From Steroidobacteraceae bacterium (GTDB lineage Bacteria > Pseudomonadota > Gammaproteobacteria > Steroidobacterales > Steroidobacteraceae), in the NCBI GenBank assembly GCA_035524495.1, contig DATKOR010000045.1:2862-66861 (forward strand): 64,000 nt of DNA. Direction: 5' to 3'. Shown piece after piece: positions 22-23,747 of this stretch. The notes beneath the pieces are model-generated. The model was not told where the DNA came from. It was given only the letters and a program-made list of their open reading frames with translations, and searched no databases. How positions within the stretch are numbered: position 1 is the first letter of the stretch; the number at the start of each line of letters is the position of its first letter. The translations under genes were made by a program, and so were the position numbers.

Positions 22-996
22 ATGCGCACCGTCGTCGCCCTCGGAGCCCTGGCACTGTCGCTGATTGCAGTCAGTTCGGCGCGCGCCGACTGGATGCACC
101 GTGAAGAATCGATCATGGGCACGCGCATCTACGTCGAGCTGTGGCACGACGACCGCATCCAGGGCGACGCCGCCATCGATGCCGTCATGGACAACATGCG
201 GCGCATCGACGAGCTGATGAGCCACTACAAGCCCGAAAGTCAGTTGTCGCAGATCAACATGCACGCCGCGGTCGAGCCGGTTGCGGTGGATCCAGAGCTC
301 TTCGACCTCATCAAGACGTCGATTCACTACTCCGAGATCACCGAGGGCGCGTTTGATATCACGTACGCGAGCGTCGGCTACCTGTACGACTACCCGCGGC
401 ACGTGCACCCCACCGATGCCGAGATCAAGGCAGCGCTGCCCGGCATCAATTACCGCAACCTCATTCTCGACGCCGAGCACCATACGGTGCGCTTCGCCCG
501 CGAGGGCATGCGCATCGACCTCGGCGGCATCGCCAAAGGCTACGCGTGCGACCAGGCGATAGAGATCGTCAAGCGCTTCGGCGTCAAGAACGCGATGGTG
601 ATGGCGGGCGGCGATACCCGGCTGCTCGGCGACCGCCGCGGCCGGCCGTGGATGGTCGGCATCCGCAATCCCGACAACAAGAACAAGGTTGTGCTCAGCA
701 TGCCGCTGTCGGACGTCGGCATCTCAACATCGGGTGATTACGAGCGCTACTTTGACGAGGGCGGGGTCCGCTATCACCACATCATCGACCCGAAGACCGG
801 CAAGAGCCCGACGGGCGTGCGCAGCGTGACGATCATCGGGCCGACCGCGACCGACACCGAAGGCTGGTCGAAAGGCGTGTTCATCAAGGGTCCGGCGGAG
901 GGCATCCGCCTGATCGAGCAATACCCGCAGATGGATGCCGTCGTCGTCGACAAGGACGGCAAGGTCTGGTACTCGAAGGGCCTCGCGCCGCCGTAA
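22..996 (+). CDS. apbE: FAD:protein FMN transferase (ApbE family), periplasmic
   Basis: 324-aa ORF with N-terminal signal peptide (ALGALALSLIAVSSARA). ApbE-like blocks: MGT..., DLGGIAKGY, SGDYERYF, HHIIDPKTG. GGAGGA ribosome-binding site upstream of the ATG. Confidence 0.9.
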   Translation: MRTVVALGALALSLIAVSSARADWMHREESIMGTRIYVELWHDDRIQGDAAIDAVMDNMRRIDELMSHYKPESQLSQINMHAAVEPVAVDPELFDLIKTSIHYSEITEGAFDITYASVGYLYDYPRHVHPTDAEIKAALPGINYRNLILDAEHHTVRFAREGMRIDLGGIAKGYACDQAIEIVKRFGVKNAMVMAGGDTRLLGDRRGRPWMVGIRNPDNKNKVVLSMPLSDVGISTSGDYERYFDEGGVRYHHIIDPKTGKSPTGVRSVTIIGPTATDTEGWSKGVFIKGPAEGIRLIEQYPQMDAVVVDKDGKVWYSKGLAPP

Positions 997-1014: not shown

Positions 1015-2202
1015 CTAGAAGAAGATCGACAGGAAGGCCTGCACGACGTTCGCATTGTAGTGGTAGAGCGGCTCGGTTCCGGCCGGCAGTTGGCGCTGCG
1101 TCGCGTCCCGGAAGTCCTTGAACTTGTACATGATGTAGTCGTAATGCAGCGAGCCCGACGCCTTCTTCACGAGCCAGTGCTGTGACTTGAGGAAGTCGTA
1201 GGTCACCGCAGCGCCGACCGCGTTGTTGTCCTGCGCCGCCAGTTCCTTGTCGCGCGCCATGTAGTTCTGCTGGTTCGCGAACTGGAACAGATCGGAGTAG
1301 AACGACGCGGAGTTCTGCTTGTAGTACCGGTAGGTGAGGTCCGCGATCAGCCGATCGTTCAGGAAGGGCTCGGTGTAGTCGACCTCGACCGTGTGCGCGT
1401 GGATGTCCCAGGTGTCGAAGAAGTAGCGGTACTTGCCGGTCACCGAGGCGTGCCAGGGCAGGAAGTACTTCAGGCGGCCGGCGACCGCGTTGCTGGTGCG
1501 CGTGCCCGGATAGACCTCGGGACCGGTCAGGTAGATCGCCGACCCGGGCCCGGCGAGGTAGCGGATCGCGCGGTAAGGGTTCTGAAGGTAACCCTGCTCG
1601 GTGATTGCCTCGTAGTCGAAGCCCGAGATCAGGTTGCGCGTCAGGATCTGCGAGACGCCGAGCGACCAGGTCTTGCGGTCGACGCGCTTGCGGAAGTTGG
1701 GGTCCTTCTGGTGCGCGGCGTTGATGACCCGCGTCACGATGTCCCAGCCGCGGCTCGCGCCGATCGATATCGTCGTCAGGTCGCCGAACATGCTCTGCGA
1801 GATGCCGAAGCTCGCGGTGCTCGAATCGTAGTCGTTCTCGATGCTGCTCTGGACGCCGGCGCTATAGGTCGTCTTGCCGTACAGGTAGTCGACACCGAGC
1901 TGCTTTTGCTTGCGCACCTCGTGCAGCGGGCTCGCCCCGAGCACGATCATGTCGATCGACGCCCCGGTAACCTGGTCAACTTGGTAGCCGGCGGTGACCG
2001 AGATGTTGTCGGAGAAGTTCTTGCGCACGAGCACGGCTGGGCCCTGTGCCTTCAGGCCGCCGCCGTCGTACACCCGCCAGCTGGCGTCGGCGCGCTCCTC
2101 TGGCAGCACGTCGGCCACGGCGCTCGCGGCGACCAGGCACGCGAGCGCCGCCGCGCACAGCGGACGGCGCAGGGGACGCGGCTTGGACACGATCCGATCC
2201 AT
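1015..2202 (-). CDS. DUF3570-family outer-membrane beta-barrel protein, predicted ApbE flavinylation substrate
   Basis: 395 aa with signal peptide and alternating beta-strand pattern. C-terminal aromatic residue (…AFLSIFF). Contains D-Q-V-T-G-A-S (nt 1957-1977), matching the ApbE target motif. Sits beside apbE, DUF4266 and a thioredoxin, as is typical for DUF3570 loci. Confidence 0.8.
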   Translation of the reverse strand: MDRIVSKPRPLRRPLCAAALACLVAASAVADVLPEERADASWRVYDGGGLKAQGPAVLVRKNFSDNISVTAGYQVDQVTGASIDMIVLGASPLHEVRKQKQLGVDYLYGKTTYSAGVQSSIENDYDSSTASFGISQSMFGDLTTISIGASRGWDIVTRVINAAHQKDPNFRKRVDRKTWSLGVSQILTRNLISGFDYEAITEQGYLQNPYRAIRYLAGPGSAIYLTGPEVYPGTRTSNAVAGRLKYFLPWHASVTGKYRYFFDTWDIHAHTVEVDYTEPFLNDRLIADLTYRYYKQNSASFYSDLFQFANQQNYMARDKELAAQDNNAVGAAVTYDFLKSQHWLVKKASGSLHYDYIMYKFKDFRDATQRQLPAGTEPLYHYNANVVQAFLSIFF

Positions 2203-2210: not shown

Positions 2211-2438
2211 TCAGTTGCAGCCGCAGCCGCCGCCGGCCTCGCCGGTGCCGCCCCGCGCGCCTTCGCGGTTCTCGCGCACGTGCGTGATGTAGGAGGTCGC
2301 GATCGCATCGCGATCCCAGGCCATCACGCGATCCGCGAGCCGCTCGCGCTCATACGGCTTGACCCACGGCTGGATCTGGCCGCAGGCCGAGGTCAGCGCC
2401 ACGCATCCGAGCAGGACGAGCATGCCGAGCCTGTTCAT
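2211..2438 (-). CDS. DUF4266-like small lipoprotein
   Basis: Internal ATG of track ORF 2211..2762 gives 75 aa: MNRLGMLVLLGCVALTSAC (lipobox) … GGCGCN C-terminus. The longer N-terminal extension overlaps the upstream thioredoxin gene and is Arg/Gly-rich. Confidence 0.75.
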   Translation of the reverse strand: MNRLGMLVLLGCVALTSACGQIQPWVKPYERERLADRVMAWDRDAIATSYITHVRENREGARGGTGEAGGGCGCN

Positions 2439-2440
2439 GG

Positions 2441-2950
2441 CTACTTCTCCATCAGCATCGCGCGCACCTGGTTCAGGTACTCGTTCTCGTCGCCCGGCAC
2501 ATAGCTGCGGTGCACCCAGCGCAACGTGCCCTTGCGATCGATCAGCACGGTCGTCGGCATGCCGGAGACGTGGTACAGCTTGCTGACCGCGCTGTCCTTG
2601 TCGAACACGATCGGGAAGGTCACCGGCGTCTTGGCGATGAACCCTTCGGCGTCCTTGGCCTCCGGCTCGACGTTGACGCCGACCAGCGTGAAGCCGGCGC
2701 CCTTGTACTTCTTGTAGATCTGGTCGAGCAGCGGGAATTCCTTGCGGCACGGCTCGCACCACGAGGCCCAGAAGTTGACCATGACGACCTGGCCGCGCAG
2801 CTTCTCGAGGCCGAGCGGGGCGCTGCCGCCGCGCAACGGCAGCGAGAACGCGGGTGCCGGCTGCCCGATCGGGTCGGCGGCGGTTGCCGTCGAGGACACG
2901 CTCGCGGCGGCGGCGAGTGCAAGCGCGGGAAGAAGTGTCTTGATCCTCAT
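2441..2950 (-). CDS. TlpA/ResA-like periplasmic thiol:disulfide oxidoreductase
   Basis: 169 aa with signal peptide. Thioredoxin active site WASWCEPC. GMPTTVLIDRKG block typical of the TlpA/redoxin family. Confidence 0.9.
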   Translation of the reverse strand: MRIKTLLPALALAAAASVSSTATAADPIGQPAPAFSLPLRGGSAPLGLEKLRGQVVMVNFWASWCEPCRKEFPLLDQIYKKYKGAGFTLVGVNVEPEAKDAEGFIAKTPVTFPIVFDKDSAVSKLYHVSGMPTTVLIDRKGTLRWVHRSYVPGDENEYLNQVRAMLMEK

Positions 2951-2975: not shown

Positions 2976-3665
2976 TCAGAAGAACACCGTTACGCCGAGG
3001 CCGGTCTCGAGGTTGTGGGTGGTCTTGGTCGAGCCGAGCAGGTCCATGTCGAAGATGCTGTCGCGTATATCGAAGTGCGCGGCCAGCCAGTCGTTGAGCA
3101 GCAGTCGGTAGCCGGCGCCGACGGCCACCGTGAAGCGGTTGTCGCCGGCGAAGTGGGTCGCGCCGACGCCGCCGACCACGTACAGCGCCGAGTTGAACGC
3201 GCGCCGGTTGCCGACGAAGACCTCGCCCGGGAACAGGTTGTACCCGAAGTCGAGGCTGTAATATGTGAGCCTGCGCTGACTATCGGTCAGCAGCTGTGCG
3301 CCGCCCGAGAGGCGCTCGTAGCTGGTGCGCCCCACGGTGGTGCGGCCGATCAGCGTCTGCGCGAAGAAGTCCTCGCTGATGTGATAGACGAGTCGCGCGC
3401 CCATCACCGGGTTGACCTCGAAATCCTCGGCGCTGTAGGTGCCGATGTAGGGCCCGATCTCGAAGTTCGAATTCTTGATCTTCGGGGTCTTGACCTTGCG
3501 GCGCACGACCTCCGGCTCGACGACCGCCGGAGCCGCGCCCTCGGCCGAGGTCGCCTCGACCGGCAGCTCCTCGGGGCGCTGCTTCTTGTGGAACGGCCAC
3601 ATCGAGCAGCCACCCAGCGCGAGCGCGCAGGCAATCAGAAAAAGAACGCGAAGCCTGCTTTCCAT
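2976..3665 (-). CDS. Small outer-membrane beta-barrel lipoprotein
   Basis: Trimmed to MESRLRVLFLIACALALGGC (lipobox). 229 aa with alternating hydrophobic strands and terminal …GLGVTVFF. The upstream 128 aa of the track ORF are Arg/Pro-rich shadow. Confidence 0.75.
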   Translation of the reverse strand: MESRLRVLFLIACALALGGCSMWPFHKKQRPEELPVEATSAEGAAPAVVEPEVVRRKVKTPKIKNSNFEIGPYIGTYSAEDFEVNPVMGARLVYHISEDFFAQTLIGRTTVGRTSYERLSGGAQLLTDSQRRLTYYSLDFGYNLFPGEVFVGNRRAFNSALYVVGGVGATHFAGDNRFTVAVGAGYRLLLNDWLAAHFDIRDSIFDMDLLGSTKTTHNLETGLGVTVFF

Positions 3666-4408
3666 TCGTTCCGATCCTCGTTTTGGTCGCGCTTCGTGAA
3701 CAGCACGTAGCTGCGGTAGTCGCCGCGCAGGATGAAGCGCCGGGACAGGTACCACTTGACGCCCAGGCCGTAGTAAGCGATCTGTTCGGTTCTCTCGGGC
3801 GGCGAGATGATCGTCGCCTTCGGCTGGATCCGGACGACGCCGGTGCCGAGGTCCAGGAACGGCGCGACGCGCCAGTCCGGCCGCGGCGAATGCGCAAGGC
3901 CGAGCAGCGCGATCAGGCCGTTCGAGGCGTGCCCGATCGTCTGCGCCACCTGCAGCTCGGTTGCGAGGTTCGCGTTCAGCGAATAGCCGACGTACAGGCT
4001 GTTGACGTTGCCGCCGCCGAAGTTTCCGGTCTGCGCGCCGGCCTCCCAAGGCCAGACGTCGAAGTCGCGGTGCGACAGGTCCTCGAGCGGCAGCTTCTCG
4101 CCGCTCGCGAGCAGCGTCTCGCGCATGTTGTCGCGGAACGCCCAGCCTTCGTGGTCGTACTCGTCGCGGACCTTGAACCAGTCGGTGCGACGGAACAGGA
4201 TCTCGACGCGCTCGCCGCGCGGAATCACTCTGAACACCGGGTAGCCGCCGCCGGGGCCCGTGTGCAGCTCGAGGTACGGATCCGCGACCGCGACTTCCGC
4301 GTAGCGGCCGGCATCGCGGTCGAATTGCCGCGCCGCGTCCCCCGAGTGTGCGAGTCCCGCTGCCGTGGCCAGAATAAGTAAGGTCGCGAGCTTCAGGACT
4401 TTACGCAT
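3635..4408 (-). CDS. Secreted SH3-like domain + outer-membrane beta-barrel protein
   Basis: 257 aa with signal peptide (ATLLILATAAGLAHS). N-terminal bacterial-SH3-like segment (YPVFRVIPRGERVEILFRRTDWFKVRD). C-terminal barrel ending …KAGFAFFF. Its 3' end overlaps the next gene start by 31 nt. Confidence 0.75.
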   Translation of the reverse strand: MRKVLKLATLLILATAAGLAHSGDAARQFDRDAGRYAEVAVADPYLELHTGPGGGYPVFRVIPRGERVEILFRRTDWFKVRDEYDHEGWAFRDNMRETLLASGEKLPLEDLSHRDFDVWPWEAGAQTGNFGGGNVNSLYVGYSLNANLATELQVAQTIGHASNGLIALLGLAHSPRPDWRVAPFLDLGTGVVRIQPKATIISPPERTEQIAYYGLGVKWYLSRRFILRGDYRSYVLFTKRDQNEDRNEWKAGFAFFF

Positions 4409-4412: not shown

Positions 4413-7235
4413 TCAGTTGGCCGGTGGTGGGATCGCGAACGGATCGTTGTAGTACTGACCGCCGATGTCGAGCCACTCGGAGATCAGCTTCAGCTCGGCC
4501 CCGGTCAGCCAGCCGGCGTGCGTACCGCCAGTGGCGAACTCATTGAAGAAGGCCGCCGAAGCATTCGCTCCCGCGCCGCTCATTGGCGGAGTGACCTGCA
4601 CGATGACCTGCGTGGGCAGGCCCGTCACCGGGTCCGGCGGTCCGGGCACGACGACGGGCTGCATAGTAACAGGGTCGAGCTCGGGGTGCGGGAACAGCAG
4701 CTGGCAGAACGAGGTGAACTCGTTCTGGTCGCAGGGGTTGGTCTGGGCCGGGCTGCTTGAGAGGTCGAGCTGACCCGCCGACACGCGCTTGACTCCGGCC
4801 GTGTCCAGCGGGCTGTGGCAGCCGGTGCAGGTCGTGTACGGCATCGTCGTGTTGGGATCGACGGCCGTGATCGTCGACCGCGGGCTGGTCCACAGCGGCG
4901 CGATGTGCAGCGGGTAGTGGATCGTGATGCGGCAGTTGTTCTGCCAGTTCGTCTCGCAGTCGGCCCGGACCGGTGCCGGCGTGCCGAGCTGCGCGTACGT
5001 CCAGGAGAACGAGGGGTCGGGCGTGCCGACACCGGTCGTCGTCCAGACGTCGGTGAACACGATGTCGACCGCCGGGTCGCTGGCGCAGGCCGCATCGACG
5101 CACGTCACCTGCATCGCGGCCCGGTAGTCGGCCATCGTCTCGCCGGCATTGGGCTGGCGCGGCGGGGGGACGATGTTGCCGGTGCGGTCGGTGACCTGCA
5201 GCGCCGTGTTCGGGAAGGCCTGGCCGGACACCGGGGCGCCGGTGTTCACGAGCGGGAACAGGCCGACCCGTCCGTGCGAGTTCGACGGCGGCATCTGCTG
5301 TTGCACGTGGCAGCCGTTGCAGACGACGGTCTCGCCGGTGCGGATCTGCATCCACGCGCGGTGGCGAGGGAACGTCCCGTCGAGCCGCCGGCCGTTGGCG
5401 TCGAGCAGGCTGATCTGGAAGGCGATGTTGGCCGGCACCTTGATGCGCACCGAGCCGTCCGGCTCGACCGGCGCGTAGCCGATGATCTCGCGCATGAAGC
5501 CGCCGGCTACGCCGAAGGCATAGTTCGGGAAGTTGTTGTTCGACAGCACTTCCTTGTCGGGCAGGCTGACCGCCTTCTCGACGCGCACGAAGCGCGGCCG
5601 GGTCGCGCTCGGCTGGCGCAGCGCCGGGTCGCGGACGGTCGCGATGCCCCCCGGAGCCGTATCGACGCCGTCGAAGTCGTAGACACTCTTTATATCCAGG
5701 ATGCCGACACCCTCGGCCGCCAGGGCGAAGGTGTAGGAGCCGGTGGTGCTCGGCTGGGCGTCCGGGATCACGGTCGGCGTCGGCAGCCGGGGCTGCAGCG
5801 CGACGACGTCGGTGAACATCATGCCCTCGACCGGCGTCACGATCGGCATCTGCGTGTTGTTGGCCGGATCGTAGATCCAGATGCTGTAGATCGTAGGTGC
5901 CGGCGTCACGCCGGTGATCGCGAGATTCTGCGAGGTGCACGGCACGACCAGCGTCTGGTTGAGCAGCCGGCACTGGCTCCAGCTGACGAGCAGCCGGTTG
6001 GTGCCGTCCCACAGCGGGAACACACTCGAGAAGCGGCCGCCGGGTGAGGGCGGCGCGACCGGCGGCGTCGCGTTGGGATCGGCGGCCGTGGTCACGACGT
6101 CGTTGACAACCATGCGCACCTGGCCGGTCGCGCCGGCCGCGACGGTCGCACCCAGGACCGTCTGCAGGTTCTCGACGAAGTTGGCCTGGTCAACGAGCGC
6201 GATGTCGCCGCCGAACTCGGTGCCCTGGAACGGCAGCAGGAGCGCAACGATCTTGCCGTCCGGACGGGAGCGCGCCTGGGTGAACTGCACCAGCGAGCCG
6301 CCCTGTGCGGTCGTCGGGTTGCCGGTGTCGTGGCTGTTGCGCCCGTACAGCAACTGCATGTCGCCGCCGTCCGGGTCGATCGCGTACAGGTGCATGCCGG
6401 CACCCGAGTTCTGGTCCCAGCGCGTGAACACGACGCGACCGTCGTTGAGCACCGACGGGTCGAGGTCGTGTCCGGTGTTGAACGAGACTTGGTGGATGCC
6501 GGTGCCGTCCGCGTTCATCACGTGGACGACGAACGCCGGCAGGTTGCGGTTGCCCTCGATGCCGGCCGCGAACTGCTGCTTGCCCTCGTCGATCAGCACC
6601 GCCTTGGCGTCGTGCTGGCGCGTCGAGGAGAACACGATGCGCCCGTCCGGCAGGTAGTGCGGACCGACGTCGTGACCGAGCGCCGCGGCGATCGGGTCGC
6701 TGATGACCTGGCGTACCGTGCCCTTGGTCGCGTCGTATTCGAAGATCGTCCAGCGCGGCTGCTGCGACTCCTTGGCGTTCTTAATCGTGTGGCAGCGGAA
6801 CGAGAAGATCAGCTTGGTGCCGTCGAAGGACGAGTCGAGATCGCGCACGTCGTGATCGGGGCCGGAGTTCCGGTTCGGATCCGAGGCCAGCGGGCAGGCA
6901 ATCGAGGAGGTGATGTTCTTCTCGTTCGCCGTCGGGCTCGCGCGCTCGCGCACCCACACGTCGGCCGGCCCGTTCCAGACGCGCTGCACGCGCAGGTCGT
7001 CCTCGAGCGTGATCGCGTTCGGGTCGGTGGGGTCGGGCAACGTCCGCTTGATGTAGGCGATCGCGAAGTCGGGCGATACCGGGTCGTTCGACGAGGTGCC
7101 GCTGCCCAGACCGATGCCGCTGTTGCTGCTGGCGGTGCCGTCGCTGCTCGAGCAGGCGGCGGCGAGCGCCGCGAGCAACGTCACAACGAGCAAGCGCTGT
7201 ACGCGGCTCAGCAGTGTTGCGTTCACAGTGTCCAT
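4413..7235 (-). CDS. Large lipoprotein: TolB/PD40-like beta-propeller with two c-type heme-binding (CxxCH) motifs
   Basis: Trimmed to MDTVNATLLSRVQRLLVVTLLAALAAAC (lipobox), 940 aa. PD40-like repeats: HYLPDGRIVFSSTR, LNDGRVVFTRWD, RPDGKIVALL. CNGCH at nt 5307-5321 and CTGCH at nt 4815-4829. The overall architecture is reminiscent of proteins carrying the hydrazine-synthase-alpha middle domain (inference). Confidence 0.8.
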   Translation of the reverse strand: MDTVNATLLSRVQRLLVVTLLAALAAACSSSDGTASSNSGIGLGSGTSSNDPVSPDFAIAYIKRTLPDPTDPNAITLEDDLRVQRVWNGPADVWVRERASPTANEKNITSSIACPLASDPNRNSGPDHDVRDLDSSFDGTKLIFSFRCHTIKNAKESQQPRWTIFEYDATKGTVRQVISDPIAAALGHDVGPHYLPDGRIVFSSTRQHDAKAVLIDEGKQQFAAGIEGNRNLPAFVVHVMNADGTGIHQVSFNTGHDLDPSVLNDGRVVFTRWDQNSGAGMHLYAIDPDGGDMQLLYGRNSHDTGNPTTAQGGSLVQFTQARSRPDGKIVALLLPFQGTEFGGDIALVDQANFVENLQTVLGATVAAGATGQVRMVVNDVVTTAADPNATPPVAPPSPGGRFSSVFPLWDGTNRLLVSWSQCRLLNQTLVVPCTSQNLAITGVTPAPTIYSIWIYDPANNTQMPIVTPVEGMMFTDVVALQPRLPTPTVIPDAQPSTTGSYTFALAAEGVGILDIKSVYDFDGVDTAPGGIATVRDPALRQPSATRPRFVRVEKAVSLPDKEVLSNNNFPNYAFGVAGGFMREIIGYAPVEPDGSVRIKVPANIAFQISLLDANGRRLDGTFPRHRAWMQIRTGETVVCNGCHVQQQMPPSNSHGRVGLFPLVNTGAPVSGQAFPNTALQVTDRTGNIVPPPRQPNAGETMADYRAAMQVTCVDAACASDPAVDIVFTDVWTTTGVGTPDPSFSWTYAQLGTPAPVRADCETNWQNNCRITIHYPLHIAPLWTSPRSTITAVDPNTTMPYTTCTGCHSPLDTAGVKRVSAGQLDLSSSPAQTNPCDQNEFTSFCQLLFPHPELDPVTMQPVVVPGPPDPVTGLPTQVIVQVTPPMSGAGANASAAFFNEFATGGTHAGWLTGAELKLISEWLDIGGQYYNDPFAIPPPAN

Positions 7236-7578
7236 CCCAGTCCTCGCTTCGGTCGCGCCGCACGCGCCGCGCGTGTGACGCGCGACACGAGAGAAGCGGA
7301 CCGCATCATGTCTTTCGCCAGCAGTGCATTCTGTTAACACGCTCACAGCCTCAGCCAAGTCATTTCACGTATTCATGCTTCGCGCAAAAGGGAGTCGCCA
7401 GCAACGCGAGACTAACCTGCCAAGCACTCTGCTCGTAATGTCGCAGCGCTGCGACTTCGGCGTGGTCTGGGAGGCCTGTCACAACTACGCCAATGTCGCT
7501 CCCCTGAGACATTACGGCTGCGAATGGCTCTCGATATAGTCGCGGCGAGTCTCAATTTTTGTCCGCGAGTGAATCGCC

Positions 7579-8799
7579 ATGAAAGCAGCGATGCAGGTTA
7601 GGCAGATCAACGCAGCCGCTCCGCAGCGAGCTCTCGGCGCCGCGATCGTCGCGTCGGCGCTCGTGATGCTCTCGGCACTCGCGGCGCCGGCCCTCGCCGG
7701 GTCGCGCGAGCAGGCGATGCGCATGCACGACCGCCTGAACGGTTCGCCACCGACGCAGGCCGTGCTCGACTCGATGCAGGCGCAGATCGACGGCGGCAAC
7801 GCCAAGGGTGCCGCGCTGCTCGCGATCGACGACCCGAACGGCAACTTCTACTCGGTCGTGCTGAAGAACTTCGCGATGCCGTGGACGAACCGCGACCAGA
7901 CCGCGTTCGCCCCGCTCAACGACTACGTCGCGACCGTCGTCGGCATGGTGCGCGACGAGGTGCCGTTCAACACGCTGCTGTCGGCCGACCTTATCTATGT
8001 GGGCAAGAGCGGGCTCGGACTGCCGGCCTACTCGAACACCGACAACAACCACTATGTGCAGATGGAGGCGCAGGCGCTGAATCTGCGCGACGTGCTGGTG
8101 GCGGCGCCGCAATCGGCGACGACCGGACTTCCGGCGGCAGCAACCGCCGGCGTGATCACGACCCGCGCCGCGGCTCGTGCCTTCTTCATCCTCGGCACCA
8201 ACCGCGCGATGTTCCGCTTCACGATGATCAATCACATGTGCACGGACCTGCAGCTCGTGATGGACATCACGCGTCCGACCGACCGCATCCGCCAGGACGT
8301 CAGCCGCAGCCCGGGCGGCGACAGCCGCGTGTTCCTGAACAACTGCGTCGGTTGCCACTCCGGCATGGACCCGATGGTGCAGGCGTTCGCCTTCTACGAC
8401 TACGTCGATAATACGACGACCGACAACGGCTCGCTGCAGTACACGCCGGGCACGGTCGTCGGCAAGTACTTCCACAACAACACGACGTTCGCCCCGGGCT
8501 ACATCACGCCCGACGATCACTGGGACAACCGCTGGCGGACGGGACAGAACTCGCTGATGGGCTGGGACTCGACGCAGCCCGGCTCCGGCAACGGCGCGAA
8601 GTCACTCGGGGCCGAGATCGGCGCCAGCGGCCAGTTTGCGCAGTGCCAGGTGACGAAAGTGTTTCAGGCGGTGTGCCTGCGCGCGCCTTCGGACGCGGCA
8701 GACCGCTCGCAGGTGGCCACGATGGTCGCGGACTTCAAGCAGGGCTACTCCTTGAAGAACGCGTTCGCTGAGGCCGCTGTGTACTGCATGGGCAATTGA
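7579..8799 (+). CDS. Secreted DUF1588-like protein with CxxCH motif
   Basis: 406 aa with signal peptide (…LSALAAPALAGS). CVGCHSGMDPM (nt 8344-8358 for CVGCH) matches the C-x-x-C-H-x-x-x-D-P signature I associate with DUF1588/PSD-type planctomycete domains. Confidence 0.75.
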   Translation: MKAAMQVRQINAAAPQRALGAAIVASALVMLSALAAPALAGSREQAMRMHDRLNGSPPTQAVLDSMQAQIDGGNAKGAALLAIDDPNGNFYSVVLKNFAMPWTNRDQTAFAPLNDYVATVVGMVRDEVPFNTLLSADLIYVGKSGLGLPAYSNTDNNHYVQMEAQALNLRDVLVAAPQSATTGLPAAATAGVITTRAAARAFFILGTNRAMFRFTMINHMCTDLQLVMDITRPTDRIRQDVSRSPGGDSRVFLNNCVGCHSGMDPMVQAFAFYDYVDNTTTDNGSLQYTPGTVVGKYFHNNTTFAPGYITPDDHWDNRWRTGQNSLMGWDSTQPGSGNGAKSLGAEIGASGQFAQCQVTKVFQAVCLRAPSDAADRSQVATMVADFKQGYSLKNAFAEAAVYCMGN

Positions 8800-8812: not shown

Positions 8813-11341
8813 ATGAACGCGTCAGGTTTGATCGATACTCTTCGGACTCAGTCGCTGCGCGTGACGCGCGGCCGGGTGACGGCGCTCGCGGTCCTCGCGG
8901 CCAGCGTGCTGCTCGCCGGCTGCGGCGCCGGCAGCGTCCAGACGGCCGCCAACCCGGTGGCACCGCCGACGACCAACGGTCAGAGCTACAACGGCCCGGC
9001 ACCGGCGAGCGCCGACGTCCAGGCCTTCGTCGTCAACTTCTGGAACAACGTCAAGGCAACCGACCGCTGCGGCGCGTGCCACATCCAGGGCAACCAGAGC
9101 CCGATGTTCGCCCGCAACGACGACGTCAACCTCGCCTACCAGGCGGCGCAGACCGTCGTTGACCTGACGAATCCGGCCAACTCGATCATCGTCGGCAAGG
9201 TCGGCGGCGGCCACCACTGCTGGCTCGCCAGCAACCAGGCGTGCGCCGACACGATGACGACCTGGATCAAGAACTGGGCCGGCGTCACGATGGGCAGCTC
9301 GAAGGCGACGATCCAGCTCGTCGCGCCGACGCTGATGGACGCCGGCGGCTCGCGCACGTTCCCGGCGAGCTCGACGCTCTTCGCGCAGACCGTCTATCCG
9401 CTGCTGACGCAGTACTGCTCGCGCTGCCATTCGCCGAGCGCCGCGACGGCCCAGTCGCCGTACTTCGCGCAGGCCGACGTCGACGCCGCCTACGCGGCCG
9501 CGCAGCCGAAGATGAACCTCGACACGCCGACGCTGTCGCGCTTCTACGTCCGGCTGCACGACGAGTTTCACAACTGCTGGGGCGGCGACTGTGCCGCGGC
9601 CTCGGCGCAGATGCTGGCCGCGATCCAGGCCTTCGCGAACCAGGTGCCGGTCACGCAGGTCGACCCGAACTGGTTGCTGTCGAAGGCGCTGACGATGTAC
9701 GACGGCGTCGTCGACAACGGCGGCACGCGTGTCGAGACCGGCCTGATCGCCAAGTTCGAGTTCAAGACCGGCACCGGCACGATCGCCTACGACACGAGCG
9801 GCGTCGAGCCAGCGCTGAACCTCGACATGTCCGGCGACGTGACCTGGGTCGGTGGCTGGGGCGTGCAGGTGCAGAACAAGGGCAAGCTGCAGGGCACGAC
9901 TACCGGCAGCGCCAAGCTGCACGACATGATCCTGACCACCGGCGAGTACAGCGTCGAGGCGTGGGTCGCGCCGGCCAACGTGACGCAGACGATGGCCTAC
10001 ATCGTCTCGTACTCGGGCGGCACGACGCAGCGTAACTTCACGCTCGGCCAGACGATGTACAACTACGACGCGTTCCTGCGCAGCACCACGACCAATGCCA
10101 ACGGCCAGCCGGAATTCTCGACTCCGTCGGCGCAGCAGGTCCTGCAGGCGACGCTGCAGCACGTCGTGATGACCTACGACCCGGTCAACGGTCGCCAGAT
10201 CTACGTCAACGGCCAGCTGGTCGCGACCGGTGACCCGCAGAAGGGCGGCTCGCTGTCGCAGTGGGACAACACCTTCGCGCTGGTGCTCGGCAACGAGGTC
10301 TCGTCCGACCGGCCGTTCTCTGGCCTGCTGAAGATGGTCGCGATCTACAACCGCGCGATGCCGGCTGCCGACGTGCAGTCGAACTTCGCCGCCGGCGTCG
10401 GCGAGCGGTACTACCTGCTCTTCAACGTGGACAAGTTCACCGGCCTCAACCAGACCTACGTGATGTTCGAGGTGTCCGAGTACGACAGCTACTCGTACCT
10501 CTTCAACAAGCCGGTGTTCCTGAGCCTCGATCCGACCGTCAACTACAGCGGCCTCGTGGTCAAGGGCATGCGCATCGGCATCAACGGCATGGAAGCGCCG
10601 GTCGGCCAGGCGTACGCACCGCTGAACACGACGGTCAGCGGCCAGGGCTTCGACCCGACCACGAGTCCGCTCTCGGCCGTGGCGCTGTCGAGCGTCGGCA
10701 CGACGATCGCGCTGCAGAAGGGTCCGTCCTACGACCAGTTCTTCCTGACCTTCGAGCAGCTCGGCACGGCGACCAACGTGCACACCGACGCCACGCCGAT
10801 CGCGCCGATCCCGACGGACTCGCCGCGGCCGGCCGATGTCGGCGTGCGCACCTTCGAGCAGATCAACACGTCGCTGTCGACGATGACGACGGTGCCGAAG
10901 ACCAACGCGGCGGCCAGCGCGCTCTACCATAGCCTGCAGCAGTCGCTGCCGGCCACGCCGTCCTTCGTCGGCTTCGTGTCCTCGCACCAGACGGCGATCG
11001 CCCAGCTGTCGATCCAGTACTGCGACGCGCTGGTGCGGGATCCGAACCTGAGCGCGGCGTACTTCCCAGGCTTGAACTTCGGTGCGGCGCCGGCTGCGGC
11101 CTACGACACCAACGGGCGCAACGCACTGATCACGCCGCTGATCGACCACATGCTCAGCGCCAACTCGGCGGCGGGCAAGTTCCTCGCCAGCCAGCCGACC
11201 GCGGCTTCAGTGAGGACGGAGCTCAATGCGCTGATCGACAAGCTGTCGGCATCGGTGTCCGCGGATACGACCGGTACCGCGACCATTGCCAAGGCGGCCT
11301 GTGCGGCCGTCGCCGGCAGCTCCGCGATGCTGGTGCAGTAA
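8813..11341 (+). CDS. Lipoprotein with two tandem CxxCH modules, a LamG/concanavalin-like domain and a long C-terminal domain
   Basis: 842 aa. GAGGGAG ribosome-binding site and lipobox LLAGC. CGACH (nt 9068-9082) and CSRCH (nt 9416-9430). LamG-type blocks: HVVMTYDPVNGRQIYVNGQLV and FALVLGNE…FSGLLKMVAIYNRAMPAADV. Confidence 0.8.
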   Translation: MNASGLIDTLRTQSLRVTRGRVTALAVLAASVLLAGCGAGSVQTAANPVAPPTTNGQSYNGPAPASADVQAFVVNFWNNVKATDRCGACHIQGNQSPMFARNDDVNLAYQAAQTVVDLTNPANSIIVGKVGGGHHCWLASNQACADTMTTWIKNWAGVTMGSSKATIQLVAPTLMDAGGSRTFPASSTLFAQTVYPLLTQYCSRCHSPSAATAQSPYFAQADVDAAYAAAQPKMNLDTPTLSRFYVRLHDEFHNCWGGDCAAASAQMLAAIQAFANQVPVTQVDPNWLLSKALTMYDGVVDNGGTRVETGLIAKFEFKTGTGTIAYDTSGVEPALNLDMSGDVTWVGGWGVQVQNKGKLQGTTTGSAKLHDMILTTGEYSVEAWVAPANVTQTMAYIVSYSGGTTQRNFTLGQTMYNYDAFLRSTTTNANGQPEFSTPSAQQVLQATLQHVVMTYDPVNGRQIYVNGQLVATGDPQKGGSLSQWDNTFALVLGNEVSSDRPFSGLLKMVAIYNRAMPAADVQSNFAAGVGERYYLLFNVDKFTGLNQTYVMFEVSEYDSYSYLFNKPVFLSLDPTVNYSGLVVKGMRIGINGMEAPVGQAYAPLNTTVSGQGFDPTTSPLSAVALSSVGTTIALQKGPSYDQFFLTFEQLGTATNVHTDATPIAPIPTDSPRPADVGVRTFEQINTSLSTMTTVPKTNAAASALYHSLQQSLPATPSFVGFVSSHQTAIAQLSIQYCDALVRDPNLSAAYFPGLNFGAAPAAAYDTNGRNALITPLIDHMLSANSAAGKFLASQPTAASVRTELNALIDKLSASVSADTTGTATIAKAACAAVAGSSAMLVQ

Positions 11342-11363: not shown

Positions 11364-12977
11364 ATGATCATCCGGAACAAACCGCCGCGGACTCTGAAGC
11401 TCGACGAGCCGATCCTTCACCGCGAGGCGCACAAGCGGCCGGTCACCCGGCGCGACTTCATCGCCCAGGGCCTGATGACCGGCTCGGCGACCGTGATCGC
11501 GCCGGCCGCGCTCGGTCTGCTGCTCAACCCGCGTCGCGCGATGGCGCTCGACTCGGACATCCTGGCGCAGAAGATCGCGTGCGGCATCACCGGCGGCGCC
11601 GGCAAGATCCCGTTCATCTGCTTCGACCTCAACGGCGGCGGCAACATCGCCGGCTCGAACGTGCTGGTCGGGGGTACCGGTGGTCAGCAGGACTTCCTGA
11701 CGACCGCGGCCTACGCCAAGATGGGCTTGCCGGGCAGCATGGTCCCGAACGCGTCGGCGACGGGCAACTTCATCGAGAACCGCCTCGGCCTCCTGTTCCA
11801 CTCCGACAGCGCGCACGTGCGCGGCATTCTCGAGCGCACCGCGCCGTCGACACAGGCGTTCACGAACGGCGTCGTGCTGCCGGCCCTGTCGAACAACGAT
11901 ACCAACACCAACCCGCACAACCCGATGTACGGCATCGCCAAGGTCGGTGCCAAGGGTGAACTGCTGACGCTGATCGGCTCGCAGGCCTCGACCTCGGGCG
12001 GCAATTCGATGGCGCCGCTATCGATGGTCGACCCGACGCTGACGCCGACGGTCGTCAATCAGGCGAGCAACGTCACCGGCCTCGTCGATACGGGCGTCCT
12101 CGGGCAGCTGTTCTCGAACCCGGCCGACGCGGTCTCGGTGCTCGAGTCGATGTCGCGGATCAGCGGCCAGAAGTTCGGCAACGTCTCGACGCAGCTCGCC
12201 ACCGACGCGTCGGTCAAGGCGGCAGCCAACTGCAACTACGTGAAGTCCGCCTACCTCGCCGAGAACTTCTCGAGCCCGGCGGCGTTGAACCCGGACCTCG
12301 ATCCGGTGATCGTCGACCAGAGCTCGACCCGCGGCACTGGCATCTTCAGCCAGGCCGAGTACCAGGGCGACAACGAGTTCCAGAAGACGGCGGCGATCAT
12401 GAAGATGGTCGTCAACGGCTATGCCGGCGCTGGCACGATCTCGATGGGCGGCTTCGACTACCACGGCCAGGGCCGCTCCACCGGCGAGCTGCGCGACCTG
12501 CGCGCGGGCCGCTGCATCGGTGCGTGCCTCGAGTACGCGGCGCGGATGCAGAAGCCGCTGATGATCTACGTGTTCAGCGACGGCGGCATCTCGGCCAACG
12601 GCCAGGTCGACACCTCGGTCGACGGCCGCAACAAGTTCATGTGGAGCAGCGACAACGAGTCGGTCGCCTCGACCTACTTCCTCGTCTACAACCCGACCGG
12701 GCGCCCGCAGCTGCTCGACGGCGCCGGCGGCCTGCCGGCGGCCCGCCACCAGCAGATCGGCGCCTTCACGCCGGACGGCTCGGTGAACGCGGCCTCGAGC
12801 CCGGCGGCCAGCAACGTGCTGCTGCTCGTTCAGACGGTGCTGCTCAACTACATGGCGCTGCACGGCCAGCAGGCGCAGTTCCCGCAGCTGTTCCCGGACC
12901 AGGCGCTCGGCAGCGGGTCGGCGCTCGATGCGCTGACGGCGTTCGCGCCGATCGTCAACGGCAAGATCGGCGGCTAA
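11364..12977 (+). CDS. Tat-exported DUF1501/DUF1552-like protein (alkaline-phosphatase/sulfatase-fold-like)
   Basis: Trimmed to MIIRNKPP…, 537 aa. Twin-arginine motif TRRDFIAQGL. Motifs FICFDLNGGGNIAGSNV and ISMGGFDYHGQG resemble the DUF1501 signatures (…GG.DG.N…, GGWDTH). Confidence 0.75.
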   Translation: MIIRNKPPRTLKLDEPILHREAHKRPVTRRDFIAQGLMTGSATVIAPAALGLLLNPRRAMALDSDILAQKIACGITGGAGKIPFICFDLNGGGNIAGSNVLVGGTGGQQDFLTTAAYAKMGLPGSMVPNASATGNFIENRLGLLFHSDSAHVRGILERTAPSTQAFTNGVVLPALSNNDTNTNPHNPMYGIAKVGAKGELLTLIGSQASTSGGNSMAPLSMVDPTLTPTVVNQASNVTGLVDTGVLGQLFSNPADAVSVLESMSRISGQKFGNVSTQLATDASVKAAANCNYVKSAYLAENFSSPAALNPDLDPVIVDQSSTRGTGIFSQAEYQGDNEFQKTAAIMKMVVNGYAGAGTISMGGFDYHGQGRSTGELRDLRAGRCIGACLEYAARMQKPLMIYVFSDGGISANGQVDTSVDGRNKFMWSSDNESVASTYFLVYNPTGRPQLLDGAGGLPAARHQQIGAFTPDGSVNAASSPAASNVLLLVQTVLLNYMALHGQQAQFPQLFPDQALGSGSALDALTAFAPIVNGKIGG

Positions 12978-13051: not shown

Positions 13052-14416
13052 ATGCCAGGCCCGGGCCTCCTGGAGCTTCTGCAATGCCCGCGCTGCCGTC
13101 GCGCGGCGCTCGCCGCCACCGGTGCGCGCCTCGCGTGCGGCACCTGCAGGCTCGAGTTCCCGACGCTCGGGTCGATCCCCTGGCTGTTCGCGCAGCCTGA
13201 CGCGACGCTCGGCGAGTGGCGCAACCGCCTGACGCTCTACCTCGAAGAATTCTCCGCCGCCGAGCGCGCGGCCGCGGCCGACCTCGCGAGCGCGACGCGG
13301 CCCGCGACCCGCGCGCGGCTGCAGCGGCTCGGCGCGGCGTATCGCGAGCAGGGCGAGCGCGTGCGTGCGCTGCTCGCGCCGCTGCGCGTCGCGCCCGGCC
13401 CGCTCGCGCAGGCCACGCAGGTCGCGCTCGGTACGCATGTGCCGCTGACCCAGGACCTGCACTCCTACTATGCGAACCTGCATCGCGACTGGTGCTGGGG
13501 CGAGGAGGAGAACGCCGCGGCACTCGCCGAGGTCGGGACGGCACTCGGGGACGGCCGGGAGCGCGTCCTCGTGCTGGGTGCCGGCGGCGGCCGCCTCGCC
13601 TACGACCTGCACCAGGCGAGCCGCCGGCCGCTCACGGTCGCGCTCGACATCAACCCGCTGCTGCTGCTGGTCGCCGAGCGGGTCAGCCGGGGCGAGCGCG
13701 TCACGCTGTTTGAGTTCCCGATCGCACCGCGCACCGAGGCCGACGTCGCGCTGCCCCGCGAGCTCGCGGCGCCGGCGCCCGCACGTGCGGGCCTCGAGTT
13801 CGTGTTCGCCGACGCGTGGCGGGCGCCATTCGCGCCGCAGAGCTTCGATGCGGTGGTCACGCCGTGGCTCATCGACATCGTCGACCTGGACTTCGAATCG
13901 GTGGCGCTCGCGGTGAACCGGCTGCTGGTTCCGGGCGGGCGCTGGGTCAACTTCGGCTCGCTCGCGTTCCCGTGGCGCCGTCCGGAACGCCGCTACGGAC
14001 CGGACGAGGTGCGCGCGATCGTCACCGACGCGGGGTTTGAAGTCGGCCTGCAGCGCGATGCGACGCTGCCCTACATGCGCTCGCCCGCGAGCCGCCACGG
14101 ACGGCTCGAGACCGTGGCGCTGTTCGCCGCCGACAAGCGCCGCCGTGGCCCGCGCGATCCAGCCGAGGACGCTGGCCCACCCTGGCTCGCCGACACGACG
14201 CTCGCCGTGCCAAGGACCGAGGCGCTCGCGCTCGCCGCCGATGCCAGCCGCATACAGGCGGTGCTGCTCGCGCTGGTCGACGGGCAGCGCTCCGTCGACG
14301 ACCTGGTTCGCATCGTGAGCGAGCAGGGCTTGCTGCCGGCACCGCAAGCGCTGAGCGCGGTGCGCGGCCTGCTCGAGCGCCTGCATCGCACCGGCGCGAG
14401 GCTCGATCACACGTGA
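13052..14416 (+). CDS. Zn-ribbon (Trm112-like) / class I SAM-dependent methyltransferase / C-terminal PqqD-like domain fusion
   Basis: Trimmed to MPGPGLLELLQCPRCRR…CGTC (4-Cys ribbon), 454 aa. SAM motif I: VLVLGAGGGRLAYDL. Post-I/II motifs: ALDINP…, VVTPWLIDIV, LLVPGGRWVNFG (N2227-like layout). C-terminus AVLLALVDGQRSVDDLVRIVSEQG…LLERL resembles PqqD/RRE winged helix. Confidence 0.75.
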   Translation: MPGPGLLELLQCPRCRRAALAATGARLACGTCRLEFPTLGSIPWLFAQPDATLGEWRNRLTLYLEEFSAAERAAAADLASATRPATRARLQRLGAAYREQGERVRALLAPLRVAPGPLAQATQVALGTHVPLTQDLHSYYANLHRDWCWGEEENAAALAEVGTALGDGRERVLVLGAGGGRLAYDLHQASRRPLTVALDINPLLLLVAERVSRGERVTLFEFPIAPRTEADVALPRELAAPAPARAGLEFVFADAWRAPFAPQSFDAVVTPWLIDIVDLDFESVALAVNRLLVPGGRWVNFGSLAFPWRRPERRYGPDEVRAIVTDAGFEVGLQRDATLPYMRSPASRHGRLETVALFAADKRRRGPRDPAEDAGPPWLADTTLAVPRTEALALAADASRIQAVLLALVDGQRSVDDLVRIVSEQGLLPAPQALSAVRGLLERLHRTGARLDHT

Positions 14417-14741: not shown

Positions 14742-15317
14742 ATGGAGTTCGTGGCGACGGTGGTGCGGCGGCTCGCTCTATTGAACGTCCGGGTGCGGCG
14801 CAGTGCGGCGAGTGCCGCGCTGGCGATCGTGCTCGCCGGCGTTTCATCGTCGGCGCCGGCCGCCGACGCCGGTGCGCGCCACCCGTTGATCGGCAAGCCG
14901 GCACCGGAGATCGTGCAGCGCCTGTTCGCGGGACCGGGCCGGAACTTCCGCCTGTCCGAGCGCCGTGGTGAGGTCGTCGCGATCGGTTTCTGGACCAGCT
15001 GGTGCGGGTCGTGCCGCACGTATCTTGAGCGGCTCGCCAAGCTCGATGCGACCTACGGCCAGGCCGGTCTCGTCGTCGTCGGGATCAGCCTCGATGACGA
15101 TGCTGCAAGGGCCACGGCGCTCGCCCGCGCGGTCGGCACCAAGTTTCGCACCGGCGTCGACACGGAAAAGTCCGCCGGCAAGCGCTTCGCGGTGCCGGAC
15201 GTGCCGCTGACGCTTTTGATTGACCGCAGCGGCGTCGTGCGCTACGCGCATGGCGAGCTCGACGCCGCGTCCGATGCCGATCTCGTCAAAGAGATTCGGC
15301 AGCTGCTCGACGAATAG
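14742..15317 (+). CDS. TlpA-like periplasmic thioredoxin (second copy)
   Basis: 191 aa with active site WTSWCGSCR and the VPLTLLIDRSG block. An alternative GTG start at 14793 gives a cleaner signal peptide (VRRSAASAALAIVLAGVSSSAPA). Confidence 0.85.
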   Translation: MEFVATVVRRLALLNVRVRRSAASAALAIVLAGVSSSAPAADAGARHPLIGKPAPEIVQRLFAGPGRNFRLSERRGEVVAIGFWTSWCGSCRTYLERLAKLDATYGQAGLVVVGISLDDDAARATALARAVGTKFRTGVDTEKSAGKRFAVPDVPLTLLIDRSGVVRYAHGELDAASDADLVKEIRQLLDE

Positions 15318-15463
15318 GAACACCCGGAGTACGCGATGGACAGTCCACGTATAGCGCTCGCGATGCTCGACTGCGGCAGGGGTTCGCGACGCCGTGGTGC
15401 CCGGCGCAAGGCCTTGGCACTGCCGCGCTGGCTGTTGTGGATCACCGGAGCGCGCTCGCGCGC

Positions 15464-16096
15464 ATGACCAGAAAGGCCCGGACGATGCTCACCTACACCC
15501 GATTCTCCCAGTGGCTGCGTGCCCTCGCGGCCTGCAGCGTGCTCGCGCTCGGTGCGCCGGCGTACGCCGCCGACTCCGCGCCAGCGGCGGCGCCGGCGGC
15601 CGCTGCCGCGACGGAGCCCGCGGCCGCGCCGGCGACGACCGGCGGCGACTTCAAGAGCCTCGATGGCGAGGTGCAGGGTCTCAAGAAGGAGGTGCTGGAC
15701 CTCAACCGCGACCTCTTCATGCTCGAGGAAGAGCTGCTGTTCCCGGCAAACACCCAGGTCGCGGTGTTCCTGTCGCTCGACGTCGGCACGTTCTTCGAGC
15801 TCGACTCGGTGCAGATCAAGCTCGACAACAAGGAGGTCGCGAACTACCTGTACACGGATCGCGAGGTCGAGGCGCTCAACCGCGGCGGCGTGCACCGGGT
15901 ATTCATCGGCAACCTCAAGACCGGCAAGCACGAGCTCGTGGCGTTCTTCACCGGCAAGGGACCGCACGAGCGCGACTACAAGCGCGGCGCCAACATGACC
16001 TTCGAGAAGGGCGTGGGCGCGAAGTACCTCGAGCTCAAGATCTCCGACCGCCAGAGCGCCCAGCAGCCCGAGTTCAAGGTCAAGGAGTGGGAGTGA
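15464..16096 (+). CDS. Secreted coiled-coil protein of unknown function (first gene of the TPR/ExbBD/TonB operon)
   Basis: About 210 aa from MTRKARTMLTYTRF…. Signal peptide …VLALGAPAYA, Ala/Pro-rich linker, heptad-like segment LDGEVQGLKKEVLDLNRDLFMLEEEL, then a beta-rich C-terminal domain. Its stop overlaps the next gene's GTG. Confidence 0.7.
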   Translation: MTRKARTMLTYTRFSQWLRALAACSVLALGAPAYAADSAPAAAPAAAAATEPAAAPATTGGDFKSLDGEVQGLKKEVLDLNRDLFMLEEELLFPANTQVAVFLSLDVGTFFELDSVQIKLDNKEVANYLYTDREVEALNRGGVHRVFIGNLKTGKHELVAFFTGKGPHERDYKRGANMTFEKGVGAKYLELKISDRQSAQQPEFKVKEWE

Positions 16097-21922: not shown

Positions 21923-22003
21923 ACCACGGTATTCGTAACATAAGTTGAGTGAAATGGACCGGCCAAGCCGGCAAACCTCGTCGAATCGAACGGAGCAGCG
22001 GAG

Positions 22004-23726: not shown

Positions 23727-23747
23727 GTTTCGCCGAGCGAGCCCACG

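Follow-up and report, generated by a model that had tools for sequence, protein, structure and literature searches.

In a 64,000-nucleotide stretch of DNA from a Steroidobacteraceae bacterium (assembly GCA_035524495.1, contig DATKOR010000045.1, positions 2,862 to 66,861 of the forward strand; hereafter the window), the gene at 4413-7235 on the minus strand encodes a 940-residue lipoprotein with two predicted c-type haems that is related to HzsA, the alpha subunit of hydrazine synthase (HZS). The protein is not a hydrazine synthase, and its gene is the fixed centre of a large, conserved and uncharacterised envelope redox cluster in ordinary aerobic heterotrophs. Hydrazine synthase is held to be unique in its biochemistry, and how it arose in evolution is a matter of debate. 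The family shows that the full body plan of the alpha subunit, including the bis-histidine ligand of haem II, occurs widely among aerobic heterotrophs, with clusters at 50% identity in the thousands, in the company of partners entirely unlike those of hydrazine synthase. From the evidence set out below we infer that the protein is an outer-membrane-anchored dihaem oxidoreductase; its most likely role is that of the subunit which carries haem and acts as the catalytic or terminal member in an envelope relay of thiols, flavin and haem, a reading to which we give about even odds.

The assignment draws on the translation, Pfam, a PDB sequence search, Foldseek and alignments of homologues. The open reading frame (ORF) is free of stops, and all coordinates given for parts of the protein are on the minus strand. 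A longer version of the ORF, started at a TTG and extending up to 7358 (41 additional residues), was rejected; the ATG at 7235 is the better start because homologues are 920-955 amino acids long and their signal peptides begin at the same position. The N-terminus, MDTVNATLLSRVQRLLVVTLLAALAAAC-SSS, is a lipoprotein signal in which a signal peptide leads to a lipobox, L24-A-A-A-C28 (7152-7235), and the serine at +2 suggests anchoring in the outer membrane. C28 is invariant in 48 close homologues and is kept in 126 of the 131 sequences of a diverse representative alignment. For the haem-I motif CNGCH (residues 639-643, nt 5307-5321) and the haem-II motif CTGCH (residues 803-807, nt 4815-4829), the positions agree exactly with those in an initial annotation of this DNA, which had described a 940-residue lipoprotein with a lipobox. 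That annotation had made its case depend on the conservation of the motifs, and both are conserved in the 48 close homologues and in at least 126 of the 131 diverse sequences. Estimated from composition, chance alone would yield about 0.005 CxxCH motifs over this length of protein, and a chance origin was rejected because the motifs are conserved across homologues. Together with the export signal, which is likewise conserved, they predict a c-type cytochrome with covalently attached haem.

The three-domain architecture of HzsA, that is, a propeller, a middle domain carrying haem alpha-I and a C-terminal domain carrying haem alpha-II, is present in the protein. The TolB/PD40-type beta-propeller that the initial annotation had seen in the first half covers approximately residues 55-480 (5796-7073) and is recognised from the strand pattern of an AF2 model, from Foldseek matches to TolB (E of about 2e-10) and from partial matches to Pfam PD40, which is barely over its threshold (21.7 against 20.9), and to the TolB family TIGR02800 (27.6 against a cutoff of 343). 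The HZS_alpha middle domain (PF18582) occupies residues 578-643 (5307-5504) and ends on CNGCH; its Pfam match has an E value of 4.9e-14 and 53.1 bits against a cutoff of 26.6, and the domain is marked by invariance in the alignments. In the PDB, the only sequence relative is 5C2V_A, the HzsA of Kuenenia stuttgartiensis, found by phmmer at E 7e-4; a profile of the 48 homologues matches it at E 4.4e-12 in five collinear stretches that run through the propeller, the middle domain and the C-terminal helix. The AF2 model, built from the 48-sequence alignment, has a mean predicted local distance difference test score (pLDDT) of 65.6 and a predicted template modelling score (pTM) of 0.62. Its top full-length Foldseek match is again 5C2V_A (E 2.6e-22, TM 0.42/0.50), followed by TolB propellers (E of about 1e-9 to 2e-10) and then by S9-peptidase propellers, so that 5C2V_A leads TolB by 12 orders of magnitude in E. 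The search against Pfam and the PDB that the annotation had proposed recovered HZS_alpha above its cutoff, PD40 just above and 5C2V_A, and the hydrazine-synthase-alpha-like layout is supported at the levels of sequence, profile and fold.

Ligands were assigned by alignment to 5C2V, in which the chain numbering is the published numbering minus 27 (the histidine of CSGCH, His560 of the chain, is His587). In HzsA, alpha-His772 is the distal ligand of the bis-histidine haem alpha-II (PMC12758564). Its counterpart in phmmer and profile alignments is His906 (4518-4520; chain residue H745), which is conserved in 129 of the 131 sequences, and with CTGCH also kept, the bis-histidine arrangement of haem II is predicted to be retained. 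At haem alpha-I of HzsA the iron is ligated by Tyr591, four residues past the CxxCH histidine, and a zinc site is formed by His587 and Cys303 of a propeller loop (PMC12758564). No counterpart of Tyr591 was found: the window protein reads CNGCH-V-Q-Q-Q-M, with glutamine four residues past the histidine, and there is no conserved tyrosine in the 48 homologues. Haem I is probably ligated canonically by His643. The position of Cys303 is taken by residue 300, in the propeller loop N300-S301-H302 (6330-6338) of a conserved stretch, Y297-G298-x-N300-S301-H302, that reads Y-G-x-[H/N]-S-[H/Q] across the family. Among the 131 sequences, residue 300 is occupied by His in 78 cases and by Asn in 24, and residue 302 by His in 86 and by Gln in 28; a conserved cysteine is never found at the zinc-ligand position. 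Residues 300-313 have low pLDDT in the AF2 model, which is cofactor-free. Further near-invariant candidate ligands are H654 (in an SHGR motif 11-16 residues past CxxCH), H625, H238, M701 and M581.

A true hydrazine synthase alpha subunit, or a cryptic N-N bond chemistry of the anammox type in a heterotroph, would account for the common three-domain fold, for both haem sites and for His906 at the position of alpha-His772. We nevertheless regard it as very improbable and have rejected it. The protein scores 34.4 bits on the NCBIfam HzsA equivalog NF052339, for which the cutoff is 800, and the equivalents of alpha-Tyr591 and alpha-Cys303 are missing. The beta and gamma subunits co-encoded in hydrazine synthase comprise a 7-bladed propeller and a dihaem protein like cytochrome c peroxidase (CCP) and MauG; neither such a dihaem protein nor a second propeller was present among the cluster genes scanned or in the related loci annotated with Pfam, and no hydroxylamine oxidoreductase or hydrazine dehydrogenase (HAO/HDH) was found among the window ORFs scanned. 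The hosts moreover include Oleiphilus messinensis, a cultured aerobe. The heterotroph-type context that the annotation had described was borne out: the remaining genes of the window are those of ordinary heterotroph metabolism, among them glucose-6-phosphate dehydrogenase (G6PD), Edd, PEP carboxylase, serine dehydratase and a GGDEF-EAL protein.

By its sequence the protein belongs to a large, uncharacterised family that RefSeq names 'HzsA-related protein'. Neither the family nor its likeness to HzsA is new to databases or to published work. A word-indexed search returned more than 3158 matches, and representatives at 50% identity number 4176 at E<=1e-3 and 455 at E<=1e-30. Full-length matches at 40-43% identity fall into clusters that hold Aliiglaciecola and Teredinibacter proteins named 'HzsA-related protein' (RefSeq/UniRef); the member from O. 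messinensis appears as 'PD40 domain-containing protein' and, by mislabelling, as 'type II secretion system protein C'. Among named sequences, those nearest to the window genes come from metagenome-assembled genomes (MAGs) of Steroidobacteraceae or Gammaproteobacteria. The closest named relative, at 97% identity, is on a 3.9-kb contig (L001, DASQHH010000721.1) binned as Vicinamibacterales (Acidobacteriota), and this short contig is probably mis-binned, since the other close relatives and neighbours are all from Steroidobacteraceae or Gammaproteobacteria. That homologues outside anammox bacteria have no assigned function, as the initial annotation had stated, agrees with Hagglund et al. (2025, PMC12758564).

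Gene context was compared over 89 loci in which the relative of the HzsA-related protein is 41-99% identical to it. Homologues of the window neighbours were located by tblastn, and each count given here refers to the loci with enough flank to judge. Immediately beside the gene, in 78 of 78 loci, is a 257-residue protein with an SH3 domain and an outer-membrane beta-barrel (3635-4408, minus strand), and next to it, in 69 of 69, a 229-residue lipoprotein with an OMP_b-brl-like barrel (2976-3665, minus strand). An exported thioredoxin of the TlpA/Redoxin type with a WCEPC motif, here TrxA, follows (2441-2950, minus strand; 64 of 65 loci), and then a small DUF4266 lipoprotein that ends in GGGCGCN, with CGC near its C-terminus (2211-2438, minus strand; 62 of 62), and a DUF3570 protein (1015-2202, minus strand; 50 of 50), the last two being known from flavinylation clusters (PMC8238504). 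The DUF3570 protein has TGAS at residue 79 as its single canonical [S/T]GA[S/T] site, with LGAS and IGAS nearby. Convergent with this operon is an exported ApbE flavin transferase with a signal peptide (22-996, plus strand), which is adjacent in 23 of 44 loci. Each of the three barrel proteins on the downstream side has aromatic residues at its C-terminus (FFF, VFF and, for DUF3570, IFF), as is typical of outer-membrane proteins. The same cluster is found in cultured O. messinensis. Past DUF3570 and ApbE the genes differ between loci (Ysc84, a TonB-dependent receptor, DUF3187, PPK2), and we therefore place the boundary of the cluster there.

The window thus holds four components of the ApbE/DUF3570 system (exported ApbE, DUF3570, a thioredoxin-like protein and DUF4266 with its CXC motif), with the expected motifs and export signals. 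Experiments on such systems have demonstrated that a DUF3570 protein receives its flavin from the cognate ApbE, and clusters of ApbE, DUF3570, a thioredoxin-like protein and DUF4266 (CXC) have been described as a DsbD-fed extracytosolic electron-transfer module whose function is not assigned (Meheust et al. 2021, PMC8238504). Reducing equivalents in the window bacterium may pass from the TlpA-like thioredoxin to the CXC motif of DUF4266, then to DUF3570 carrying FMN attached by ApbE, and finally to the HzsA-related haem protein; the relay would probably be fed by a DsbD-type membrane protein encoded elsewhere. Haem II, with His807 as proximal and His906 as distal ligand, would be the haem by which electrons enter or leave, and haem I, with His643 as proximal ligand, may face a pocket that is closed by the conserved Y-G-x-[H/N]-S-[H/Q] loop and serves as a redox site for a small molecule. 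The two adjacent outer-membrane barrels would hold the assembly at the outer membrane, and the unit is tied genetically to two further groups of genes described below, a cytochrome/LamG/Tat triad and a TolQR-GltG motor like the 'Glt core complex'. As to the substrate, our guess by analogy, made with low confidence, is an N-oxide or an oxidant of the hydroxylamine type. Carriers of the thiol and flavin types typically have low midpoint potentials, and this would favour the protein's acting as a reductase of an oxidant.

On the other side of the HzsA-related gene the divergent operon is as the initial annotation described it, with three exported proteins of which two carry CxxCH motifs, and the length of the 343-nt gap between the two units (7236-7578) was likewise borne out. 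The first gene encodes a 406-residue exported monohaem protein, cyt406, with a signal peptide and CVGCH and without a Pfam family (7579-8799, plus strand; 66 of 66 loci), and the second an 842-residue dihaem lipoprotein with a LamG domain and the motifs CGACH and CSRCH (8813-11341, plus strand; 45 of 45). The third is a 537-residue protein exported by the twin-arginine translocation (Tat) pathway (11364-12977, plus strand; 36 of 36), which has a twin-arginine signal, no haem motif, no Pfam or NCBIfam match and thousands of homologues. Its GGFDYHG motif presumably resembles that of DUF1501, and Pfam gave no DUF1501 match. An AF2 model of the Tat protein (pLDDT 74) gave only weak Foldseek matches, all of them in the alkaline-phosphatase/sulfatase superfamily (best E 5e-4, TM 0.25); some records mislabel its homologues 'general secretion pathway protein GspF'. 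PDB sequence searches with cyt406, the LamG protein, the Tat protein, DUF3570 and a 219-residue protein of the motor unit returned nothing meaningful. Conserved blocks in the intergenic region lie on the cyt406 side (7380-7560) and comprise a -10-like CGATATAGTC, CCTGAGACATTAC and the palindrome AATGTCGC-N6/7-GCGACT. They include repeated ATGTCGC/GCGACAT half-sites and are kept across loci whose proteins are just 53-72% identical, which suggests a putative promoter with operator sites for a regulator. The region has no Rfam family and no match to a sigma-70 or terminator consensus.

The three haem sites of the divergent operon, always present in the 66 and 45 loci that could be judged for their two genes, also fit a protein working in the opposite direction, as an oxidase of a reduced small molecule (hydroxylamine, or a reduced metal or sulfur species) that passes electrons to cyt406 and the LamG dihaem protein and on to the respiratory chain. 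The thioredoxins would then serve only haem attachment or disulfide upkeep for five haem sites and many conserved cysteines, a task that accords with the ResA-type CEPC motif of TrxA and with the cysteine pairs conserved in alignments of the HzsA-related protein, such as C422/C433 and C760/C768. We consider this unlikely. The DUF4266-DUF3570-thioredoxin trio is an independent electron-transfer module that occurs without cytochromes in other phyla (PMC8238504) and yet is invariably co-directional with the HzsA-related gene here, and the cluster encodes no link to a quinol or cytochrome oxidase.

Beyond the Tat protein the plus strand carries an S-adenosylmethionine (SAM) methyltransferase that lacks a signal peptide and has a Trm112-like zinc ribbon at its N-terminus (13052-14416; start codon uncertain), identified by Pfam and found in about half of the related loci; it is inserted between the gene for the Tat protein and a riboswitch. 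The latter is a full-length c-di-GMP-I-GGC aptamer (RF03167; 14577-14656, plus strand; 67.1 bits in Rfam against a gathering score of 59), predicted to bind cyclic di-GMP (c-di-GMP), in the leader of the next transcription unit. It sits between a terminator-like site past the methyltransferase gene and the gene for a second thioredoxin, and a weak terminator-like hairpin overlaps its 3' end. The unit that it precedes begins with that second exported thioredoxin of the TlpA/Redoxin type, thioredoxin-B, with WCGSC (14742-15317, plus strand; Pfam, sequence and loci). It continues, still on the plus strand, with an exported 219-residue protein for which profile searches gave no known family (15437-16096), a tetratricopeptide repeat (TPR) protein of about 640 residues with an approximate start (16120-18033; Pfam/NCBIfam and loci), and a 1136-residue TPR protein with YbgF/CpoB-type repeats (18030-21440; TIGR02795, 110 bits against a cutoff of 90). 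An exported 161-residue protein of no known family, with a counterpart in loci L090 and L091, follows (21437-21922, plus strand), and then come the genes of a motor: a TolQ/ExbB-like protein with a MotA_ExbB match that scores best against TolQ (22004-22708), two TolR/ExbD-like proteins with ExbD matches that score best against TolR (22705-23214 and 23211-23726), and a TonB/GltG-like protein with an AgmX/PglI C-terminal domain (23748-24662; NF033768, 69 bits against a cutoff of 40, and a partial GltG match), all on the plus strand.

Linkage of this unit to the redox cluster is not peculiar to the window. Thioredoxin-B, the 219-residue protein and the two large TPR proteins are present in about 28 of the 32 loci with 10 kb of upstream flank, and they are still linked where the unit has been relocated behind ApbE or DUF3570 (L005, L043, L083, L092). 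In L090 and L091, just as in the window, the unit runs on into a TolQ/ExbB-like gene and two genes of the TolR/ExbD type; L090 has a gene for about 310 residues at the position of the TonB-like protein, and L091 ends inside the second ExbD gene. In the window itself the Glt-core-like unit (15437-24662, plus strand) is physically linked to the redox cluster. Rfam scans, together with a covariance model built from 8 copies, found the riboswitch in 16 of 40 sources, nearly always directly upstream of the unit of thioredoxin-B, the 219-residue protein, TPR proteins and motor, in rearranged loci as well. Other copies are on the minus strand in L002 (2686-2765), L006 (2543-2621), L009 (2607-2685), L015 (2331-2408), L026 (1736-1819), L033 (2313-2409) and L055 (9098-9181), and on the plus strand in L043 (17977-18078), L044 (9482-9583) and L005 (7626-7724). 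The copy in L033 is a canonical c-di-GMP-I aptamer and not the GGC variant, and that in L055 instead precedes the monohaem gene, within the divergent intergenic region. At a relaxed threshold of E<=0.05 none was found in L008, L024 or L090, and the riboswitch is therefore lineage-restricted. The placement of the motor unit behind a c-di-GMP riboswitch in many lineages suggests that the function lies in the envelope or is associated with surfaces. About 30 kb from the riboswitch is the gene for a dCache-HAMP-GGDEF-EAL protein (46344-48848, minus strand), which may be an enzyme of c-di-GMP turnover, and the window also has a tRNA gene at 54946-55019 on the minus strand.

These genes give some weight to the view that the HzsA-related protein is a non-catalytic adaptor or electron carrier of a trans-envelope machine of the Tol/Glt type. 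Its propeller would dock other proteins, as TolB does for Pal and TolA, and its two haems would be six-coordinate wires or redox sensors that connect the outer-membrane barrels with the TolQR-GltG motor and the TPR scaffold. The best structural matches of the propeller other than HZS are indeed to TolB, and the cluster has TolQ-like, TolR-like and TolA/TonB/GltG-like proteins, a TPR protein of the YbgF/CpoB type and outer-membrane lipoproteins, in parallel with Tol-Pal and Agl-Glt; the extra conserved H654, H625 and M701 could close haem I. Against this, PD40 propellers occur widely and are not confined to Tol systems, there is no indication of a TolB box or a Pal-binding surface, and the conservation of a loop at the HZS zinc-loop position, together with that of the whole HZS_alpha middle domain, suggests a pocket kept for chemistry. 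We hold the adaptor view to be doubtful, if worth keeping in mind.

The thiol-flavin-haem relay with the HzsA-related protein as its catalytic or terminal subunit has several points to answer. The AF2 model that underlies the structural comparison is only moderate at the scores given above. With H654, H625 or M701 as a further ligand, haem I could be six-coordinate, which would make the protein a pure electron carrier. A scan of window genes turned up no DsbD domain, and ApbE is adjacent in only about half of the loci that could be judged; 316 flavinylation clusters of this kind without DsbD have been recorded (PMC8238504). The thioredoxins could be cytochrome-maturation factors like ResA or CcmG, and TrxA has the ResA-type motif. 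The path of electrons is read from gene neighbourhood, which does not fix the direction of flow. Covalent haem attachment and catalysis are predictions from sequence and gene context.

A more ambitious proposal, which we offer as speculation and consider distinctly improbable, is that the HzsA-related protein forms the catalytic head of a previously unrecognised redox machine that spans the envelope and is under c-di-GMP control. A TolQR-GltG motor driven by the proton motive force, the ancestral 'Glt core complex', would be coupled to the outer-membrane flavoprotein barrel (DUF3570) and to the haem lipoproteins, and all of these would jointly perform redox chemistry at or beyond the outer membrane. 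A possible example would be HZS-like N-O or N-N chemistry on hydroxylamine or nitric oxide (NO) in aerobic soil and marine heterotrophs. If true, it would give a function at once to HzsA-related proteins, to DUF3570 and DUF4266, and to the Glt core complex.

The strict linkage joins three orphan systems that had been described separately, namely the HzsA-related proteins, the DUF3570/DUF4266/thioredoxin module and the Glt motor, into one testable unit. Its cultured hosts, O. messinensis, Teredinibacter and Aliiglaciecola, are suited to genetics, and the c-di-GMP riboswitch offers a handle on the timing of its expression. In the searchable literature we found no description of the clade to which the window protein belongs (no beta-gamma partner, haem II and the His772 equivalent kept), of its invariant linkage with the DUF3570 flavinylation module and the cytochrome/LamG/Tat triad, or of its linkage to a Glt-core-like motor under a c-di-GMP riboswitch; nor was a functional study of the clade found in the literature on HzsA-related, HZS_alpha, DUF3570/DUF4266 and Agl-Glt homologues. 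The picture drawn by the initial annotation holds for the layout of the protein and its context, and it made no mention of the downstream barrels, thioredoxin, DUF4266, DUF3570 and ApbE, of the TolQR/GltG module, of the riboswitch, or of the missing HZS residues and beta/gamma partner.

Among known systems, the clusters of Meheust et al. (2021, PMC8238504) share with the window all four components, with the expected motifs and export signals. They differ in that the main text of that paper names no HZS_alpha, PD40 or propeller haem partner, no outer-membrane barrels and no Tol/Glt-like motor, in that DsbD is not co-located in the window, and in that the window thioredoxin is of the Redoxin/AhpC-TSA type and not PF13899. 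TolB of the Tol-Pal system resembles the protein in its propeller, the best structural match outside HZS, and in the TolQ/R/A-like and YbgF-like genes of the cluster, but TolB is neither a lipoprotein nor a carrier of haem domains, and TIGR02800 stays far below its cutoff. For the motor the comparison is with the Agl-Glt machinery: a 'core complex' of seven genes (gltC/D/E/G and aglRQS) is known from Gammaproteobacteria including Teredinibacter (Luciano et al. 2011, PMC3169522), and the window unit shares with it one TolQ-like protein, two TolR-like proteins, a TonB-like protein with the AgmX/PglI domain, large exported TPR proteins and overlapping taxa, Teredinibacter for example. With regard to GltC/D/E orthology, its TPR proteins give only a weak GltE match (25 bits against a cutoff of 225). 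Differences are that the word 'cytochrome' never occurs in the main text of PMC3169522 and that the hosts are not known gliders.

HzsA of K. stuttgartiensis (5C2V chain A) shares the propeller, the HZS_alpha domain with its CxxCH, the C-terminal domain with a second CxxCH, the distal histidine at the alpha-His772 position and a propeller loop at the position of the zinc loop. The window protein is about 14% identical to it, 130-160 residues longer and a lipoprotein, lacks Tyr591, Cys303 and a beta/gamma partner, and belongs to aerobic heterotrophs in which the operon is wholly different. A further comparison is with the non-anammox clades I-IV, which are defined by co-location with fused beta-gamma homologues in addition to FG-GAP/CRTAC1 and ABC genes (PMC12758564), and with the hzs-like genes of Phycisphaerae and KSB1 (PMC10732223). 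All are uncharacterised HZS_alpha proteins with a canonical haem-I site and without Tyr591 and Cys303, seen as a broad family with possibly differing substrates. His772 is missing from the clade I homologues, and haem II from clades II-III altogether (Hagglund et al. 2025, PMC12758564), whereas the clade described here has no beta-gamma partner, keeps haem II and the His772 equivalent and has fixed partners of its own. Because His906 is conserved in it, this clade is, in the predicted ligation of haem II, closer to HzsA than are clades I-III.

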